Shown: one piece after another, positions 3,484 to 64,000 of the stretch
How the letters are laid out: each line of letters starts with the position of its first letter
How positions within the stretch are numbered: the first letter of the stretch is position 1
Virus record (IMG/VR): IMGVR_UViG_3300026549_000005
Coordinates: 1-64,000 of that record
Strand: one strand, 5' to 3'
Length of the DNA: 64,000 nucleotides
Source: a virus
The notes under the pieces: model-generated
What the model saw: only the letters and a program-made list of their open reading frames with translations
The model's database searches: none
Told to the model about the DNA's origin: nothing
Program-made: the position numbers and the translations under genes

Positions 3484-4128
3484 TTAAGCCATGCAACCGC
3501 ATCCACCACAATTACAGAATGGACTTGTGCCAGCATTGTAGGTCATGCCGTTTGGATAGCGAACAACACCATTCAAAGCCTGAGCCAACTGCAACTGATT
3601 GATTTGATTCTGCATATCTGCCATGCGGTTTCCTGCAATAGCATCAAGAATCTTCTGTGTCTGAGCAGTTGTGTTTGCATTGATGCTTGCCGTGTTCATT
3701 GCATTGTTGTAATTTACACCGTCAATTGCTCTGAGTGTGTTACAACAACACTGATTCTGATTTGCAAGAGCCTCAGCCTGAGCAACACTTACACCAGCAA
3801 TATCCCTTGCAAGTTCTGAATACTTATCATTCAGGGCATTAAGGGTATCATGGAAAGTCTGATTTGTTGCACTTACTGATTGTGCAGTTCCACTTGTTAC
3901 GGCTGAAAGAATATCTCTTGTCTGAGCCTGAAGATTCTGATTATCAAAACCACGGTTTACATCAGCCTGAATAGCATTTGCATTACCATTGTTTCCACCG
4001 AATCCGCCAAAACCACTTCCACCGAAAAGGAACATGGCAAGAATCAAGAATCCCCAAAAACCAGCACCACCACCAAAACCACTATCACCACCCATAATAA
4101 CGGGTGTTCCGTTAGTTTCAATAGCCAT
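3484..4128 (-). CDS. Gly-rich membrane-anchored protein with Asn/Gln-rich coiled region, internal CCC and C-terminal CNCGGCGC
   Basis: ORF track. Strong AAGGAGG SD. The N-terminus GGDSGFGGGAGFWGFLILAMFLFGGSGFGGFGG is reminiscent of YjcZ-type Gly-rich peptides (weak recall). Confidence 0.7.
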   Translation of the reverse strand: MAIETNGTPVIMGGDSGFGGGAGFWGFLILAMFLFGGSGFGGFGGNNGNANAIQADVNRGFDNQNLQAQTRDILSAVTSGTAQSVSATNQTFHDTLNALNDKYSELARDIAGVSVAQAEALANQNQCCCNTLRAIDGVNYNNAMNTASINANTTAQTQKILDAIAGNRMADMQNQINQLQLAQALNGVVRYPNGMTYNAGTSPFCNCGGCGCMA

Positions 4129-4174
4129 AGTTTTACCTCCTTTATATTAAGTTTATTTATTAAGACCAACGGTC

Positions 4175-4402
4175 TTATAGTTTTATGCCGAATTGATTGG
4201 CAAAACTATTCAAGTCAATTCCACGTTCTTTAGCAATGTTTTGAGCCATTTCTTTTAATTGTATTTCATTTTTCCCCTGAATCATTTGCTGAACCTGATT
4301 GAACATTTGAGGATTTTGGCTTTTCATTTTTTCTAACATTTGTTGCTGAACCATCCCCATCGGATTTTTCATTGCTTGCATTGCTTGAAATGGATTTATC
4401 AT
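4175..4402 (-). CDS. Met/Gln-rich small protein (75 aa from MINPFQ...)
   Basis: ORF track 4175..4414. A GGAGG lies 4 nt before the internal ATG. Confidence 0.6.
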   Translation of the reverse strand: MINPFQAMQAMKNPMGMVQQQMLEKMKSQNPQMFNQVQQMIQGKNEIQLKEMAQNIAKERGIDLNSFANQFGIKL

Positions 4403-4796
4403 ATAAGCCTCCAATTATGTTTTCTATGTTGGATAATCTTTGATTTATTTCAGCCATTGGGTCTGATTGTTTTTCAGGAGTTACCTGCTCCTGAACGGTG
4501 TAGGTATAAAAGTCTGACTTCCCGTTGCTCGTGTTGAGTTGTTTCATGTAAATCTTGCCATTACCCGTATCTAAGAAGAAATACATTGTATTTGGGTCAA
4601 CGGGAAAACCTTTTGCCTCATCAACACTTCCAACCTGCCTTACAAAGAATTGAGGTTGATTATTTTGTGGATATGGGTTGAATTGTGCTTGTGGCGGTTG
4701 CATTTGATTCATCTGATTAAGTTGATTTTGAATCATTGCCTGCTGAGCCATAAGTTGATTACGCTGATAATCAAGCATTGGATTAAAGTTATTCAT
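4266..4796 (-). CDS. Gln/Asn-rich protein; its 3' end overlaps 4175..4402 in another frame
   Basis: ORF track 4266..4811. The ATG at M6 follows the stop of the upstream ORF by 1 nt. The core FFVRQVGSVDEAKGFPVDPNTMYFFLDTGNGKIYMK looks like real protein. Confidence 0.6.
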   Translation of the reverse strand: MNNFNPMLDYQRNQLMAQQAMIQNQLNQMNQMQPPQAQFNPYPQNNQPQFFVRQVGSVDEAKGFPVDPNTMYFFLDTGNGKIYMKQLNTSNGKSDFYTYTVQEQVTPEKQSDPMAEINQRLSNIENIIGGLYDKSISSNASNEKSDGDGSATNVRKNEKPKSSNVQSGSANDSGEK

Positions 4797-5954: not shown

Positions 5955-6377
5955 ATGAAAGTACAGATTAAACTTATTAACGGTGGAAAACTACCTGAGT
6001 TTAAAACAGATGGTGCAGTTTGTGCTGATTGTTATGCAAGATGTAAAGAACCCATTGAAATTAAACCAAATGAACGTAAATTAATTCCTTTAGGTTTTGC
6101 CGTTGAACTTCCAAAAGGGTATGAAATGGTCATAAGACCGAGAAGTAGTATGACTAAGAATAAAATTGATTCAGGAATCGGCACTATTGATTGGGATTAT
6201 AGAGGTGAGGTTATGGCTTGTCTTATCAATAATCTTGATAAAGCAATTTCAGTTGAAGATGGCACAAGAATTTGTCAATGTGCAATAAGAGAAGTTCCTA
6301 AAATTGAATTTGAAGTTGTTGATGAACTTTCAGAAACAATTCGAGGTGCAGGCGGTTTTGGTAGTACGGGAAAATAA
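5955..6377 (+). CDS. dut: dUTP diphosphatase (trimeric dUTPase)
   Basis: Classic dUTPase motifs are present: AVCADCYA, RPRSS, GTIDWDYRGEV, RGAGGFGSTG. Confidence 0.9.
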   Translation: MKVQIKLINGGKLPEFKTDGAVCADCYARCKEPIEIKPNERKLIPLGFAVELPKGYEMVIRPRSSMTKNKIDSGIGTIDWDYRGEVMACLINNLDKAISVEDGTRICQCAIREVPKIEFEVVDELSETIRGAGGFGSTGK

Positions 6378-26035: not shown

Positions 26036-26221
26036 TTATTTTATTTCATCATTTTTTATTACAGTGCCTTGCCGTATCTCAACTTGAAAAGATGTTTTAC
26101 AATGCCTGCAATATATCTCATTTATCACCACTGATTTATCAGTAAGTTTTAATAATGGCTTATTGCACTTCTTACATCTAAACCAATTAATATTATCATT
26201 CATAAATACATAATATAACAT
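26036..26221 (-). CDS. Com-like zinc-ribbon protein
   Basis: CKKC...x...CRHC spacing resembles the Mu Com translational regulator. Confidence 0.5.
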   Translation of the reverse strand: MLYYVFMNDNINWFRCKKCNKPLLKLTDKSVVINEIYCRHCKTSFQVEIRQGTVIKNDEIK

Positions 26222-26243: not shown

Positions 26244-28136
26244 TTATTTTACAACTGTATTTATCCATTGTGCATAACTCATACTGGCAGGCACTTCATA
26301 CCATTCACCAGCCCCATCTTCCCTTGCTATTCTTTCAGATTCTTCAAACATTTCATCAATTTCATCAGGTTCAAAATATGGAATTGTGGTACATCTGCAA
26401 TTACTTGACAAATACCCATTGACGATGTATAAAGTAGATGAGGAGGAAACATCGTAAATATGCCCGCTAAAATCACTACACTCAATGTTGACAACATCAT
26501 CGAATTGTATAATTCGGGAAAAAGCGTCAATGAACTTTCCAAAATCTTTAATGTCGCAAGAACCGTCATTTACAACAGACTTAAAAAGTCGGGAGTTGTA
26601 ATTAGAACGCAAAAGGAAGCGAATCAACTCATGATGAGTAAAAGAACCAGAGAAGAAAACATTAAGAACACTATCAACGCTCATAATGCCGTCAAAGGCA
26701 AGTGCTACACACGTAAGGAACTCTGCTATCGTGCTATTTCTAGGGAAAAATCTTTTAAGCGTTTTGTCAGTTTTTACGAATCTGAAATTGCTAAAGAACT
26801 TTCTAAAAGAGGGATTGATTATATTCCGCAAAAAGCCGTTGATATTTACAATGTCGATTTTTGCGTTTTCGGCAACATCGCCTTTGAGGTCTTTGGCGGA
26901 GGCTGGCATACTTCGGGAAAACATAAAGCCAAATTTTTTGAAAGAAGCAAAAAGATTTTCGATAGTGGGTACACCATTGTTATATGCTGGATTACTAACA
27001 ACACCTATTTCGTTCCAACCGCAATAGCGGATTACCTTGTCACCCTTAACGATATTCTTTGCTCTGACCCAACCTCTAGATGTAAGCATTATGTGATTCG
27101 GGGTGACGGTAAAACTTCCACCATTGGAAGTAAAAACCTTGAATATTTTTCCTGAATATTCAGATTTCATTATTTTTTCTGCGTCTGGTGATAAAACAAT
27201 GTTATCACCAGTAACGCAATTAGGGTGCATTGGCGGGTAATTTACACCCGTCACTGCCGTTTTTCTTGAATAATACTTTCCATCCCAATATCCACATTTT
27301 GAACAAGTATGAGCATCAAGTGTTGCAACAAACTGTATTTCATCAATACCATGTTCTTTGTAACTTTCCATTGTTGCAGACTCTGTTATATGAGCGGATT
27401 CCGTTATGCATAATCTTTCAGCGTTATAAAATGAAGTTCCGTAATTCTTTGCAATTTCACGAGCAATGACTACAGAGTTCTGCCCTCTCGCTATTCCTTG
27501 CAGGAAAGTGTTGCTTATGTTATCAAGCAGTTTATTTTTATCTTTCCAAATACGGTCTGAATAGTTTTCACCCAACCATCTTTCATTTACAAGATATTCA
27601 ACTTTATTTGCAGGAATAGCACTATAACCCGCACTGAATCCAAGTGTTTTATCAATATCAAAACTTGTGTAAGAATGTATATTTTCACATAATTTGGATA
27701 ATTCATCATTAAACTTTATTTCCTGCCTGAATCCCAAATCAATTAGATTGTATCTGAGTGAATTCTTTAATCCTTCCAACCTTGACATATAGGCTCTTGC
27801 TGACTGTAACCTTAATTCTTCTTTGTATTTACGCAACAGTTCAACATTGATTTTTCCCTGATTATCTTTAGCAAGTTTATTCACAAGATTGTAATAATTG
27901 GCAATTTCAATTTTGGCTGATTTCAATTCATCAGGATTTAATCTTTTCTGTACATCAGCGATTGAAAGACCATTCATTCCCGCATATCTGCCATAAAAAG
28001 CATCAATTTCTTTCTGAATGTTTTTAAGTGAGATTTCATATAATCTTTTACATTCGCTTTTAAGAATTGCAATGGATTTATCACCCATTCTTTCCTTTAT
28101 CTTGCCACGGTCTTTCCAATAAATTTCGCTATCCAT
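26244..28136 (-). CDS. head morphogenesis protein (SPP1 gp7 / Mu F family) interrupted by an intein
   Basis: TCSKCGYWDGKYY...NYPPMHPN|C...SSN|CRCTTIPY. The family motif PP.HPNCRC is restored if residues 307-579 are removed. Confidence 0.85.
   Translation of the reverse strand: MDSEIYWKDRGKIKERMGDKSIAILKSECKRLYEISLKNIQKEIDAFYGRYAGMNGLSIADVQKRLNPDELKSAKIEIANYYNLVNKLAKDNQGKINVELLRKYKEELRLQSARAYMSRLEGLKNSLRYNLIDLGFRQEIKFNDELSKLCENIHSYTSFDIDKTLGFSAGYSAIPANKVEYLVNERWLGENYSDRIWKDKNKLLDNISNTFLQGIARGQNSVVIAREIAKNYGTSFYNAERLCITESAHITESATMESYKEHGIDEIQFVATLDAHTCSKCGYWDGKYYSRKTAVTGVNYPPMHPNCVTGDNIVLSPDAEKIMKSEYSGKIFKVFTSNGGSFTVTPNHIMLTSRGWVRAKNIVKGDKVIRYCGWNEIGVVSNPAYNNGVPTIENLFASFKKFGFMFSRSMPASAKDLKGDVAENAKIDIVNINGFLRNIINPSFRKFFSNFRFVKTDKTLKRFFPRNSTIAEFLTCVALAFDGIMSVDSVLNVFFSGSFTHHELIRFLLRSNYNSRLFKSVVNDGSCDIKDFGKFIDAFSRIIQFDDVVNIECSDFSGHIYDVSSSSTLYIVNGYLSSNCRCTTIPYFEPDEIDEMFEESERIAREDGAGEWYEVPASMSYAQWINTVVK
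26400..27218 (-). mobile_element. intein (273 codons) in the MuF-like gene
   Basis: Hint blocks: CVTGDNIVL (A), TVTPNHIML (B), GHIYDVSSSSTLYIVNGYLSSN (F/G), then +1 Cys. Coordinates are derived from residue indices of the track ORF. Confidence 0.8.
26460..27155 (+). CDS. antisense-encoded HTH + Vsr/DUF559-like (PD-(D/E)XK-type) endonuclease candidate, entirely inside the intein
   Basis: ORF track. Resolvase-type HTH IIELYNSGKSVNELSKIFNVARTVIYNRLKKSG. Nuclease-like core IYNVDFCVFGNIAFEVFGGGWH...DSGYTIVICW. A GGAGG lies 13 nt upstream. The ORF is in exact antisense codon register with the intein ORF. Confidence 0.6.
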   Translation: MPAKITTLNVDNIIELYNSGKSVNELSKIFNVARTVIYNRLKKSGVVIRTQKEANQLMMSKRTREENIKNTINAHNAVKGKCYTRKELCYRAISREKSFKRFVSFYESEIAKELSKRGIDYIPQKAVDIYNVDFCVFGNIAFEVFGGGWHTSGKHKAKFFERSKKIFDSGYTIVICWITNNTYFVPTAIADYLVTLNDILCSDPTSRCKHYVIRGDGKTSTIGSKNLEYFS

Positions 28137-35293: not shown

Positions 35294-35671
35294 ATGAAAA
35301 AATCAAAATCTTTTTTGGCGGTTTTATTAGTGCTTGTGCTTTTATCGGGTCAATTATCTGCACAATCTTTTTCAGAAAAAACAGACGAACAACTGATTCA
35401 GACGCTAGAGCAGGAATTGAACAAGCAAGAGCAACTTGTGAATCAGCAGGCGGAACATCTACAGAACTTGCAGGAACAACTCAAGAGGCAATCAGAATTG
35501 AACAAGACCTTGCAGGAACAAATGAACAACTTACAGAATCAATTAGAACAAGCAGACAAATCATTGATGAACTCAAAAAAAGGCACACTTAAAGATAAAA
35601 TAATTATCGGTTCAATGTGCCTTTTAAGCGGTTTTGCAATAGGTTCAACTATTGTTTATATAAACAAATAA
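35294..35671 (+). CDS. signal-peptide / coiled-coil / C-terminal TM protein (moron-like, opposite orientation)
   Basis: MKKSKSFLAVLLVLVLLSGQLSAQ, a Gln-rich coiled coil, and IIIGSMCLLSGFAIGSTIVYI. Confidence 0.6.
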   Translation: MKKSKSFLAVLLVLVLLSGQLSAQSFSEKTDEQLIQTLEQELNKQEQLVNQQAEHLQNLQEQLKRQSELNKTLQEQMNNLQNQLEQADKSLMNSKKGTLKDKIIIGSMCLLSGFAIGSTIVYINK

Positions 35672-55819: not shown

Positions 55820-55875
55820 TACAATATGATTATTTTATAAATCAATTTATATTAAAAGTCAAGTAGTTTTATTCA
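55820..55875 (-). promoter_or_regulatory. class-1 promoter repeat (TTGACT-17-TATAAA)
   Basis: Minus strand: AAACTACTTGACTTTTAATATAAATTGATTTATAAAATAATC...GGAGGATATGTATG. Confidence 0.55.
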
Positions 55876-56588
55876 AATAAAGGTAAATTATTCTTTTTTA
55901 TACCTTTATTCCACGGAATACAACCTTTCTTTCTACCAACATTTTTCCTTTGTTCTGCATTCAACTTCACCCCTTTATTCCAAGCAACTTGCCCTTTATG
56001 TGATTTTTTCAAATTTTCAATATGCTCTTTTGAAAAAACCCTGCCTTTTGCCGATTCAGATATTTTCTTTTTAGTTTCTTCACTATGTTTTCTACCCTTT
56101 TGAGATTGACTCATGTGCAATCTTGCTAAATCTGAAGGTATTTTTCCTAAATGGGCATTCCTATTTTTTAATTTTGTTCTTTCACTATGCTTTTTCCCAT
56201 AAAATCCATTTTTAGAACCATAATTAGCACATTTTTCAGATAATAACTTTTTAGTCTTTTCACTATGATGCTTACCATAAAACGGGTTTAATTCGCCACA
56301 ACCAATTCCACCATCACCACCTGCTGAAATGTTATATTCTGCTTTACCTTCACCACGACATAAAGCAATGAAAACTTTTTCCAAAATATTTACATTTTCT
56401 TTTGTTTCTGTAATTGCTAAAATTTCTTTTGAAAAAATTTCTAACCCATACTTTTCTTTAGCAAGTTTTAATTTACAACCTGAACCCATATATTTATCTG
56501 TTTCAGGTGTTTTATTAGCAGGACACTTTCTTTGCCCTATATATGTTTTCCCATTAATATTGTTTGTTATACAATAAATATAAAACAT
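55869..56588 (-). CDS. free-standing GIY-YIG homing endonuclease with NUMOD3-type repeats
   Basis: FYIYCITNNINGKTYIGQ. Repeats GKHHSEKTKKLLSEK, GKKHSERTK, GRKHSEETKKKISE. The protein ends NLPLFE. TGATG overlap with the upstream gene. Confidence 0.85.
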   Translation of the reverse strand: MFYIYCITNNINGKTYIGQRKCPANKTPETDKYMGSGCKLKLAKEKYGLEIFSKEILAITETKENVNILEKVFIALCRGEGKAEYNISAGGDGGIGCGELNPFYGKHHSEKTKKLLSEKCANYGSKNGFYGKKHSERTKLKNRNAHLGKIPSDLARLHMSQSQKGRKHSEETKKKISESAKGRVFSKEHIENLKKSHKGQVAWNKGVKLNAEQRKNVGRKKGCIPWNKGIKKNNLPLFE

Positions 56589-57211
56589 CAGTTTCCTCTT
56601 ACACAAACGCTTGAAACACCTTTTATATTTTTCTTTACTTCAAAAACCCTATCCGCTATATCAATAAATTGATTCTCATGTGTGACCATAATTATTTCGA
56701 GTCCGAGTTTTGTAGATAACTGCCTAACAACTTCACAAACCCTACTCATCAAATCTTTACTTACAAATTTCATAGGTTCATCAAGTATCATCACATTATC
56801 ACAATTTGATGATAAAACATAACTAGCCAACCTTAATGCCCAACAAGTAACATCTACTACCCCGCCCCCGCTGGCATTCATAGGGTCAATTGGTCTGCCC
56901 GTTTTTTGTGATAGGAAAACTAATTCAGCATCAGTTTTACCCCTTGCAATATTAAACTGTAACTGAAATTCATATTCATTTGGAAAACAAGTTTCAAGTG
57001 CAAGATTTACAATATCTTCAATCTGAAATTTCAATTGTGATTGTGTATCTTGTGCCACTTTCTGCAAGAATGCCTGAGCCTGCTCCAACAACTTAATTCT
57101 ATTATTAAGATTATCGAGTGTTGTTTTATTCTGAATAAGGTTATTTTTAATCTGCTTTTTCATTCCCTTAGATTGCAGGAACAATTGTTTTACTCTGTTT
57201 ATATCCATCAT
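56588..57211 (-). CDS. SbcC/Rad50-like ATPase, C-terminal half only
   Basis: Short coiled coil, then signature ASGGG, Walker B MILDEP and H-loop VTHE. There is no Walker A. Confidence 0.75.
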   Translation of the reverse strand: MMDINRVKQLFLQSKGMKKQIKNNLIQNKTTLDNLNNRIKLLEQAQAFLQKVAQDTQSQLKFQIEDIVNLALETCFPNEYEFQLQFNIARGKTDAELVFLSQKTGRPIDPMNASGGGVVDVTCWALRLASYVLSSNCDNVMILDEPMKFVSKDLMSRVCEVVRQLSTKLGLEIIMVTHENQFIDIADRVFEVKKNIKGVSSVCVRGN

Positions 57212-62543: not shown

Positions 62544-62792
62544 TTATTTTATTTCCTCCCAATGCCCTTTATGTTCATCTTCATAACAATCTTCACCTGC
62601 ATTGTAATCAACCCATTTCATTTTCCCTTGCTTTACTTTTTCAAGCAAATCTTCCAATTCAGTAATTCTTTCAACTGCACTCTTACATACACTTGAAACA
62701 ACAACGCAACAAGTTGGTGTAATCTTGTTTTTGTTTTCCTCAGCACATTTCAACAACGCACCTTTAATTTGCATTCTTTCTGAATCTGTCAT
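62544..62792 (-). CDS. hypothetical protein (82 aa)
   Basis: ORF track. Confidence 0.5.
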   Translation of the reverse strand: MTDSERMQIKGALLKCAEENKNKITPTCCVVVSSVCKSAVERITELEDLLEKVKQGKMKWVDYNAGEDCYEDEHKGHWEEIK

Positions 62793-64000
62793 TTTTTCTT
62801 ACTCCTATCACCAGTGTATTTATCTTCATCATCTTCTTCAAGTTCAATTTCACATTCATTATCAAACCTGCTATCAGTGATGATACGACCAATTCCAAAA
62901 CATTGTGTACATACTGCCTGCCTGAATTCCTGCTCACCCTCACGAACCGCCAATTGTTTCAGCCTTAAAATACCATTTTTCTTTTCAATTTCAGTCTGAT
63001 TAAGTGAGACCATGCTTGTAACATGGGCAAGTTTGCGAATATCCTCGGCTATGTCCGTTGCATCTACATTCTTACCGATGCTCGCTCTTCCTGATTGCGA
63101 TGCAGTGAATACAACACACTTTCTTTTTTGTGCCATACCCCTAAGCCTTTTCCAAATACCGTCAATCTGATTTCTATAATCACCTTTTTCACTAGGCATC
63201 ATAATATCAGCATAATCAACAATAATTACATCAGGAACATAACCATCATTCTGCACAAGATTTTCAATATCCATATCAAGCATTTCAACACTTTCAGAAT
63301 AAGCAGGAACGGCAAGAACCCTTATGTCACCACCCCTGAACATTCTTTTTAATTGTTTCTGCTTTTTCTGAATTTCTGAAATATCAACTGCCTTTCTACT
63401 AATCGTCTTATGCTCAACAGTCCATTTATCACCATCAGATTCAAAATATGGATAATCCAATTCTTTGTCTTCATTCACCTGCCCACTCATACAAGTCCAA
63501 TATCTTTTCAACATTTGCGATTCAGACATTTCAAGTGAACAATGTAAAACTTTCAGACCATTCATCATTGCGGTAACACCCGCATCAATCAATGCCCAAG
63601 TATTATGAGATACCGTTGTATCAGCAAGCAAAAATTTATGGTCACCATCAAGAACAAAACCGTAATAATCATCTTCACCAACTGATTCAATTTTGAATGA
63701 AAAAGTGTTATTCAATGAAGAATACTTCTTTGAATCCTTTAATTTTTTTCTTTCAAGCAAACAAGGAATTTTTGACAATTCACCCGTTATCTTGATAATC
63801 CAAGATTTTTTCCACCCATTTGTTTCAACATACATTCCCTTATAATTTTTACACTTTTCATTAAAAGTTGTTCTAAATCCTAATTGCTGACATAGAGTTT
63901 TGACATCATTTGCCAATCTTTCATTCATCAAGTGAATTTCTATACATTTACCGTCTTTTGACGCATATCCATCTGTATCAACAATTCCAGCAAGCAAATC
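62789..64000 (-). CDS. DnaB-like replicative helicase, C-terminal part (ORF open to the right edge), containing the end of an intein
   Basis: The C-extein TWALIDAGV...VLHCSLEMSESQMLKRYW...IIVDYADIM...VFTASQSGR is a DnaB-type RecA fold. The reading frame continues upstream of the TTG listed in the track. Confidence 0.8.
   Translation of the reverse strand, partial: DLLAGIVDTDGYASKDGKCIEIHLMNERLANDVKTLCQQLGFRTTFNEKCKNYKGMYVETNGWKKSWIIKITGELSKIPCLLERKKLKDSKKYSSLNNTFSFKIESVGEDDYYGFVLDGDHKFLLADTTVSHNTWALIDAGVTAMMNGLKVLHCSLEMSESQMLKRYWTCMSGQVNEDKELDYPYFESDGDKWTVEHKTISRKAVDISEIQKKQKQLKRMFRGGDIRVLAVPAYSESVEMLDMDIENLVQNDGYVPDVIIVDYADIMMPSEKGDYRNQIDGIWKRLRGMAQKRKCVVFTASQSGRASIGKNVDATDIAEDIRKLAHVTSMVSLNQTEIEKKNGILRLKQLAVREGEQEFRQAVCTQCFGIGRIITDSRFDNECEIELEEDDEDKYTGDRSKKK
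63602..64000 (-). mobile_element. LAGLIDADG-type intein, C-terminal portion (N-terminus outside the window)
   Basis: DLLAGIVDTDGYAS (LAGLIDADG block). YYGFVLDGDHKFLLADTTVSHN followed by +1 Thr (blocks F/G). Confidence 0.8.

Follow-up and report, generated by a model that had tools for sequence, protein, structure and literature searches.

How can one segment of phage DNA encode a protein-splicing element on one strand and, codon against codon, a second protein on the other, and what would that second protein do? The question is raised by a 64,000-nucleotide (nt) stretch of IMG/VR virus record IMGVR_UViG_3300026549_000005 (positions 1 to 64,000; hereafter the window), in which a MuF-type head gene on the minus strand is interrupted by an intein that contains a 231-codon open reading frame (ORF) on the plus strand. 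A reading of the letters alone (the original prediction) had suggested a homing-type nuclease encoded backwards inside the intein. The present analysis indicates that the locus is very probably a mobile class-1 intein in MuF carrying, between its splicing modules, a separate antisense gene for a homing endonuclease with a helix-turn-helix (HTH) module and a Vsr-like nuclease. The host gene and the intein comprise the following features, a vertical bar in the motifs below marking a splice junction.

26244..28136, minus strand: MuF/SPP1-gp7-type head morphogenesis (minor capsid) gene, a 630-amino-acid (aa) ORF, intein included
27219..28136, minus strand: N-extein, residues 1-306, ending ...PPMHPN; the alignment with intein-less relatives breaks exactly there
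26400..27218, minus strand: predicted class-1 intein, 273 residues, Cys1 to Asn273, followed by a +1 Cys; from profiles and from the gap against intein-less alleles
27093..27104, minus strand: intein block B, TPNH, Thr39...His42; read from the sequence, with the intein frame under the stronger selection
26400..26465, minus strand: intein blocks F/G, GHIYDVSSSSTLYIVNGYLSSN; read from the sequence, with Ser penultimate and Asn273 terminal
26244..26399, minus strand: C-extein CRCTTIPYF..., 51 aa, plus the stop codon; from the alignment with intein-less relatives

The precursor matched Pfam Phage_Mu_F over residues 206-307 (E 8.3e-14) and the minor head protein family phrog_115 (E 3e-84). Translation of the ORF bore out the earlier claim that the MuF motif is split by a 273-codon insert at 26400..27218, the reading being ...NYPPMHPN|CVTGDNIV...IVNGYLSSN|CRCTTIPY and the insertion site HPN|CRC. 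All the residues of a class-1 intein are present, i.e., Cys1, Thr39-Pro-Asn-His42, Asn273, and the +1 Cys, and those of the TPNH block were invariant in a three-sequence alignment (A4). Profile matches of the insert fell just under threshold, Pfam Intein_splicing scoring 33.4 bits (E 4.9e-8) against a cut-off of 35.8 and TIGR01445 intein_Nterm 24.0 against 24.5. The conceptually spliced MuF of 357 aa (630 minus 273) was used as the query for intein-less relatives, the comparison to which the original prediction had looked. The six closest (91, 89, 85, 83, 78, and 73% identity) were 356-358 aa long with an uninterrupted HP(N/Q)CRC, leaving a gap of exactly 273 codons. A blastn search of the whole MuF gene against GenBank phages gave no match, so that relatives are visible there only at the protein level. 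A syntenic intein-less phage contig (L120) showed ∼90% DNA identity to the window up to 26393 and again from 27223, and the L120-type intein-less allele reads ...CCGCCACTTCACCCACAGTGTCGCTGTACC.... Because intein-less alleles of the exact spliced length exist, the boundaries are precise and the insert, judged by its residues and by these alleles, is an intein. Other intein-bearing copies of the same lineage were found in L122 (95% DNA identity) and P0148, and the presence of the intein is sporadic among close relatives. Splicing of the MuF precursor is suggested by the intein frame having been kept open, within a head-assembly protein, in 91 of 94 distinct copies.

Beside the intein, DNA identity to L120 dropped to 0.64 over 90 nt of the N-extein (27219..27310), compared with ∼0.9 elsewhere, and the intein-bearing P0148 has the same flank as this phage at that position, CS(K/E)CGYWDGK.YS. 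The low-identity flank may have arisen by co-conversion, or may be no more than a loop prone to variation; as the loop next to the intein varies in all relatives, co-conversion is left as a lead.

The center of the intein gave a different picture from its ends. No endonuclease signature was detected in the central sense codons, and no match was obtained in Pfam, NCBIfam, or PDB sequences, in line with what had been noticed from the letters. The center is composed of 14% Phe, the mirror of a Lys/Glu-rich protein. Used as a protein query, the sense-frame intein retrieved one homologue (a fragment), as against 27 for the antisense translation, an asymmetry informative in itself. The AlphaFold2 model of the sense-frame intein had a confidence score (pLDDT) of 36.5, exceeding 50 only at residues 13-65, from an alignment of three sequences; although this does not permit a fair comparison with the endonuclease model, the poor prediction is consistent with an unstructured center.

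On the opposite strand, the following features were recognized.

26460..27155, plus strand: putative antisense homing-endonuclease gene, 231 codons, wholly inside the intein and in shared codon register; from the ORF, homologues, and selection
26440..26446, plus strand: Shine-Dalgarno (SD)-like GAGGAGG, 13 nt ahead of the ATG and antisense to the block F loop Ser codons
26487..26588, plus strand: predicted HTH DNA-binding module, endonuclease residues 10-43; from Pfam and AlphaFold2 helices
26772..27101, plus strand: predicted Vsr-like/EDxHD-type nuclease core, endonuclease residues 105-214; from profiles, fold, and conservation
26778..26780 (E107), 26856..26858 (D133), 26886..26888 (E143), and 26907..26909 (H150), plus strand: conserved core residues

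The coordinates, the length of 231 codons, and the GGAGG (26442..26446) 13 nt upstream were as originally proposed. So were the shared codon boundaries, (26460-26244) mod 3 being 0, which places codon position 1 of one frame opposite position 3 of the other. Subtracting the plus-codon number from 254 gives the number of the intein residue opposite; the block F codon for His253 has the plus ATG as its reverse complement, and TCA, the codon of Ser22, has the plus stop. With the frames set in this way, every stop codon on one strand faces TTA, CTA, or TCA on its partner, and since each of these can be replaced by a synonymous codon, neither frame need give up an amino acid for the other to remain open. 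It was confirmed that none of the 11 Leu and 18 Ser codons of the plus ORF is TTA, CTA, or TCA, whereas these make up 4.64% of 16,776 codons in the other genes of the window and occur 19 times in the 357 codons of the MuF exteins. On the window baseline, the probability of 231 codons without any of the three is 1.7e-5, that of the 11 Leu and 18 Ser codons avoiding them is 9.4e-6, and that for the 12 Leu and 22 Ser of the overlapping sense codons is 1.2e-6. The longest run free of TTA, CTA, and TCA in any window gene (237 codons) lies in the MuF-intein gene, the runner-up being 147. With respect to composition, the earlier remark that the segment is locally richer in guanine and cytosine (GC) was partly borne out: GC is raised in the plus ORF (38.2% against a window mean of 33.3%), which places it at the 93rd percentile among windows of the same size. 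The local GC content is thus raised, not extreme, and cannot explain the open frame.

These figures bear on the objection that the plus ORF is a mirror artefact of sense-frame conservation or composition and that no protein is made from it. The register is indeed the most permissive one for antisense ORFs, but the chance of an open frame this long in this genome is ∼1e-5. Nor was the plus ORF found to be an orphan kept open by base composition, one of the outcomes that would have told against the original prediction: in addition to the GC result, a large protein database yielded the 27 homologues mentioned above, with 29-94% identity and mostly ∼280 aa long. Pfam matches to HTH_7 (E 2.7e-4) and HTH_Tnp_IS630 (E 2.6e-4) were obtained at the amino-terminus, where AlphaFold2 placed helices at residues 10-18, 23-29, and 34-43. 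The model of the complete endonuclease, built from a 26-sequence alignment, showed a pLDDT of 87, which counts against a mirror artefact, and a predicted template modeling score of 0.65. The predicted fold comprises an HTH of three helices, a linker of helical structure, and a core with the topology alpha-beta-beta-beta-alpha-beta-alpha. The closest PDB structure by Foldseek was 3r3p, the catalytic domain of the homing endonuclease I-Bth0305I (probability 1.00, target-normalised TM-score 0.60, E 3.8e-3), and 3r3p was also the sole significant match of the nuclease-region profile to PDB sequences (E 3.7e-4). In the profile alignment, D133 and H150 fall on the mutated positions of the 3r3p construct, D196A and H213A, and E107, D133, E143, and H150 align with the corresponding positions of 3r3p. 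Among 85 distinct copies, E107, Y130, N131, D133, and E143 were found in 85/85, H150 in 81/85, and R162 in 84/85. The invariant residues of the plus frame fall on catalytic positions of a Vsr-like nuclease, which speaks against a mirror artefact. Profiles, homologues, the AlphaFold2 model, Foldseek, and residue conservation together support the two-domain protein that had been proposed, and by these lines of evidence the plus ORF represents a real, conserved family of HTH plus Vsr-like (EDxHD-type) nucleases.

The strand on which selection acts was ascertained from 94 distinct copies; both frames were open in 85, which were used. Owing to the shared register, position 3 of the plus frame is position 1 of the minus frame, so that the two frames can be compared directly. 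At plus codons 1-200, the entropy by codon position followed the order position 3 > position 1 > position 2, favoring the plus (endonuclease) frame. At plus codons 201-231 the order was reversed, position 1 (1.43) exceeding position 3 (0.98), which favors the minus (intein) frame. The outcome was identical whether the alignment was made from the plus-frame or the minus-frame translation. The last stretch corresponds to one further feature.

27060..27152, plus strand: codons 201-231 of the endonuclease, which face intein residues 23-53 with block B; intein-frame selection outweighs endonuclease-frame selection

Pairwise Nei-Gojobori ratios of non-synonymous to synonymous substitution rates (dN/dS) showed the same switch. 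In the center (plus codons 1-160), the plus frame had dN/dS values of 0.17-0.36 and the minus frame values of 0.74-0.96, with amino-acid identities of 0.44-0.81 and 0.27-0.67, respectively. At plus codons 201-231, dN/dS was 0.37-0.87 in the plus frame and 0.33-0.37 in the minus frame (0.87 and 0.37 for the most divergent pairs). Avoidance of TTA, CTA, and TCA extended through the family: in the endonuclease frame of 87 distinct loci, the three codons occurred 4 times in 20,042 codons compared with ∼444 expected from the codon usage of each locus's own N-extein, all four in one degenerate locus, and in the 18 loci below 45% GC none was observed against 223 expected. Two forces act jointly, namely, purifying selection on the endonuclease protein and codon choice that keeps the intein translatable. 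The region is dual-strand coding under selection, as had been suspected, with a dominance that is not uniform along the overlap. The mirror-artefact explanation holds in part for plus codons 201-231, where the other strand imposes conservation on the plus frame (I213, for example, mirrors block B Asn41). It does not hold for plus codons 1-200, which vary most at third positions and show the dN/dS asymmetry given above. Entropy, conserved residues, dN/dS, and a free-standing homologue described below led to its rejection; it is largely refuted, and we regard its probability as close to negligible.

The distribution of the element was examined in 120 loci fetched from phages, prophages, and metagenomes. 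In 119 of them, the homologue lies antisense within a long open frame in the same codon register. Wherever the pattern search matched, the junctions read HPN|C and (S/H)N|C(R/H)C; at one end or at both, no match was obtained in many of the loci. The inteins fall into two length classes, ∼272-274 residues with one HTH and ∼314-337 with two. A tblastn search with the plus ORF identified homologues in 129 GenBank phage records, and in the best 85 of the 129 the match lay under a head-morphogenesis, MuF, or other capsid/head gene wherever one was annotated. The carriers include Salmonella Jerseyviruses, the E. coli Kagunavirus Snoke, in which the intein is annotated, and Gordonia, Pseudomonas, Klebsiella, Vibrio, Haemophilus, and Mycobacterium phages. 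A scan of IMG/VR with the single protein gave no confirmed relatives; an alignment-based scan was needed, which detected 477 IMG/VR stretches along with 34 prophage loci in Firmicutes, Bacteroidales, Actinobacteria, Chloroflexi, Proteobacteria, Saccharibacteria, and others. The exception among the 120 loci, L066, has the following arrangement in its own coordinates.

L066, 2707..3696 (plus strand) and 3693..4562 (minus strand): convergent pair formed by a free-standing endonuclease homologue and a MuF gene, with ends overlapping by a few bases

The free-standing homologue (39% identity, E 5e-48) is located between the MuF and Mu-like protease genes, and the MuF motif is HPRGRC, an uninterrupted variant. 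On the strand opposite this endonuclease, the sequence is full of stops and no Hint signal was detected; a homologue without a Hint-coding frame opposite it is not expected of a mirror artefact. L066 shows that the endonuclease can be an ordinary gene and still be linked to the same target region; it might represent either the ancestral arrangement or a copy that has escaped.

The same distribution bears on what the protein is for. It could be expressed for a purpose other than homing, e.g., as an HTH regulator or as a nuclease directed against competing phages or host DNA; an HTH domain is present, and selection on the protein alone does not reveal its function. However, the homologues are antisense in a long open frame at 119 of the 120 loci, the readable junctions are all in MuF at HPN|C, and in the exception, L066, the homologue runs convergently and directly adjoins the MuF motif. 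A tie this strict to a single insertion site is the hallmark of a homing endonuclease, and the closest solved structure belongs to a proven homing endonuclease of the same two-module layout. A non-homing role is thus very improbable, and the tight association of the gene with the MuF HPNCRC site lends support to a putative site-specific cleavage next to the insertion site.

The preferred reading of a mobile intein with a backward homing endonuclease may be put as follows. A class-1 intein is inserted at the conserved HPN|CRC of phage MuF. Its probable homing endonuclease is not a domain of the intein polypeptide but the product of a separate gene, which is carried by the other strand and lies between the two splicing modules, N- and C-terminal. 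Selection maintains the endonuclease protein centrally and the intein splicing modules at the ends, with TTA, CTA, and TCA banned through the whole overlap. The central ∼180 sense codons then read as an unconstrained Phe-rich linker that need only be translatable, so that the intein could still splice from MuF. The endonuclease would be produced from its own plus-strand transcript by means of an SD and an ATG embedded in the block F codons. It would then cut intein-less MuF alleles near HPNCRC in co-infecting phages, and recombinational repair would copy in the whole element. With respect to the translation signals, ∼21 distinct loci have an ATG antisense to the His of the block F H(V/I)YD and a GAGGAGG or CAGGAGG ∼10 nt upstream, antisense to the loop Ser codons; these are mostly close relatives from Firmicutes-type phages and prophages.

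Several observations weigh against this reading. The penultimate residue of the intein is Ser, not His (relatives have SN or HN ahead of the +1 Cys). The match to Pfam PF18741 REase_MTES_1575 (E 2.7e-6, 27.8 bits) is under the gathering threshold of 38.2, and the nuclease core appears to be related in fold to this family without being a member by the Pfam criterion. The likeness to I-Bth0305I is modest (profile E ∼1e-3, query-normalised TM-score 0.28, Foldseek E 3.8e-3), yet 3r3p ranks first by the profile and by Foldseek, two independent methods, which supports the predicted Vsr-like fold. The last Asp of EDxHD is insecure, as position 161 is variable and the best candidate, D191, is Asp in 61/85 and Glu in 12/85 copies. 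In the nearest pair (95% nt identity), the endonuclease-only part gave 13 and 7 changes at plus positions 3 and 1, respectively, a modest signal. A promoter scan upstream of the plus ORF found 8 sites against 6.4 expected, not above chance, and a terminator scan near the plus ORF likewise gave nothing above chance. Of the chosen window ORFs of at least 100 aa, 67/69 are on the minus strand, opposite to the endonuclease. Finally, only one HTH is present here and in a few other copies, compared with two in tandem in most relatives, which are ∼280 aa long (alignment A1).

The single HTH also suits the view that the arrangement is real but that the endonuclease is, in this phage, a decaying or inactive relic in a late stage of the homing cycle, the intein being inherited only vertically. 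Decayed copies do exist: in L090/L016 (a Dubosiella newyorkensis prophage) and L091, the endonuclease ORF is cut to 141-151 codons with the MuF-intein frame open, and L042 has frameshifts in both frames. Compared with its nearest relative, the present copy also shows non-synonymous plus-frame changes clustered in the linker. On the other hand, the present copy has kept every conserved catalytic residue, and the ORF is full length with SD and ATG. Versions with a single HTH and inteins of ∼273 aa are widespread and conserved, Jerseyvirus and Kagunavirus among them, and intein-less alleles at 91% identity coexist, as expected of an element that is still moving or recently gained. A relic is therefore an unlikely description of this copy.

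A broader reading is that the MuF HPN|CRC intein and the antisense EDxHD endonuclease together make up a single composite element of ancient origin, now dispersed through phages of many bacterial phyla. Taken whole, this is tentative and somewhat less than an even prospect. The SD and ATG of the endonuclease may be hard-wired into the block F codons, and some 50-70 codons near the N-terminal splicing domain may code for structured parts of both proteins. L066 could be ancestral and thus capture the stage at which a mini-intein is invaded by an endonuclease gene of free-standing type. An antisense position would allow the endonuclease to be expressed independently of the late structural host gene.

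Other genes of the window deserve mention. Besides the endonuclease, the only convincing plus-strand genes noticed were 5955..6377 and 35294..35671, one being a dUTPase and the other a small gene with weak, sub-threshold Pfam matches to membrane/coiled-coil families. Directly 3' of MuF lies a gene for a 61-aa CxxC...CxxC protein (26036..26221, minus strand) with weak zinc-ribbon matches, and the intein-less L120 has a 59-aa gene in its position. A second intein of the same phage is conventional: a DnaB-like helicase at 62789..63997 (minus strand), whose ORF runs off the window end, has within its reading frame a LAGLIDADG endonuclease and a Hint domain (matches to Pfam DnaB_C, Hom_end_hint, LAGLIDADG_3, and Hom_end). 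In addition, a GIY-YIG endonuclease (SegE-like), with four NUMOD3 motifs, is encoded by a free-standing gene at 55869..56606 (minus strand). Together with the antisense EDxHD gene, the LAGLIDADG and GIY-YIG genes give a genome with at least three homing-endonuclease types.

The locus is a statistically very clear natural case of two-strand coding in which the boundary of the strand switch in selection can be mapped. The layout extends beyond actinophages to easily handled E. coli and Salmonella phages (Snoke and the Jerseyviruses), in which the antisense gene is usually unannotated. With regard to the origin of intein endonucleases, the data fit a scheme of "splicing first, endonuclease invades later". 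Annotation is affected as well, since gene callers retain just one of the two strands; on the metagenome contig L005 (1857..2702), the caller kept the antisense endonuclease and called no MuF over the same stretch.

Several known systems resemble this one in part. The EDxHD family member I-Bth0305I (Taylor et al., 2011, PMC3239194; PDB 3r3p) is composed of N-terminal HTH/NUMOD repeats and a C-terminal Vsr-like nuclease. The plus ORF has the same layout and the same Asp-to-His spacing of 17 (D196/H213 in I-Bth0305I and D133/H150 here). The relationship is remote (18% identity, with the last Asp of the motif insecure in the plus ORF), and I-Bth0305I is a sense-strand gene located in a recA group I intron, whereas the plus ORF is antisense in an intein. 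In fractured genes (Dassa et al., 2009, PMC2677866), a free-standing gene for a Vsr-like endonuclease is placed between the halves of a split intein. Common to both are phage genes with a Vsr-like gene between N- and C-terminal splicing modules; however, host gene and intein form two ORFs in the fractured genes, whereas here the whole element is read through in one ORF of 630 codons, leaving the intein contiguous. Out-of-frame or antisense LAGLIDADG endonucleases have been described in inteins (cyanobacterial dnaX, Gorbalenya, 1998; Phillips et al., bioRxiv 10.64898/2026.09.14.751524); in the dnaX intein of the 2026 preprint, an out-of-frame LAGLIDADG endonuclease has low dN/dS and the overlapping intein frame high dN/dS. 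The asymmetry is alike, but that endonuclease is read in the +2 frame of the same strand, while the present one is Vsr-like and antisense in shared register. Papers on Snoke and the Salmonella Jerseyviruses (PMC6776784, PMC8425127) mention a "large intein" in a capsid morphogenesis gene and nothing further. That intein is of the same family, at the same MuF site, and also 273 residues long; its antisense ORF is open, 35% identical to the plus ORF, and either unannotated or listed as a hypothetical protein.

The closest precedent is a preprint by Gosselin, Arsenault, and Gogarten (Gosselin et al., 2025, bioRxiv 10.1101/2025.01.02.630785), which reports VSR-like and LAGLIDADG endonucleases antisense in full inteins of actinobacteriophages; the original prediction, which knew of no described example, is not supported on this point. 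There, the hosts of such non-canonical inteins are DNA polymerase, minor capsid, terminase, and thymidylate synthase genes, with minor-capsid inteins exclusively non-canonical; HHpred links the VSR-like type to EDxHD/3R3P, and the sense-frame center is without recognizable structure. Earlier antisense LAGLIDADG cases are credited there to Gorbalenya (1998) and Gogarten (2002). Within the paper library searched, no further paper on antisense Vsr-like endonucleases in inteins was found. Their actinophage inteins and the present one have in common a contiguous intein with an opposite-strand endonuclease, a Vsr-like core tied to EDxHD/3R3P, MuF/minor capsid hosts, and a structureless sense-frame center; MuF genes of Gordonia phages were matched by the plus ORF at 22-34% identity. 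The two studies differ in their material, the survey covering PhagesDB actinophages only, whereas the phage studied here has 33% GC and its closest relatives are metagenomic sequences and Firmicutes prophages. The same element as here was found in Jerseyvirus and Kagunavirus, in phages of Pseudomonas, Klebsiella, Vibrio, and Haemophilus, and, as part of prophages, in at least seven phyla. A fixed register, a switch in codon-position variability, avoidance of TTA/CTA/TCA, and an SD/ATG in block F were not found in the portions of the preprint at hand. Relative to those portions, the points added by the present analysis are the breadth of phyla, the invariant register, the mapped strand switch, the block F signals, and the free-standing relative. 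The layout has a precedent, and this case extends a recently described kind outside the actinophages.

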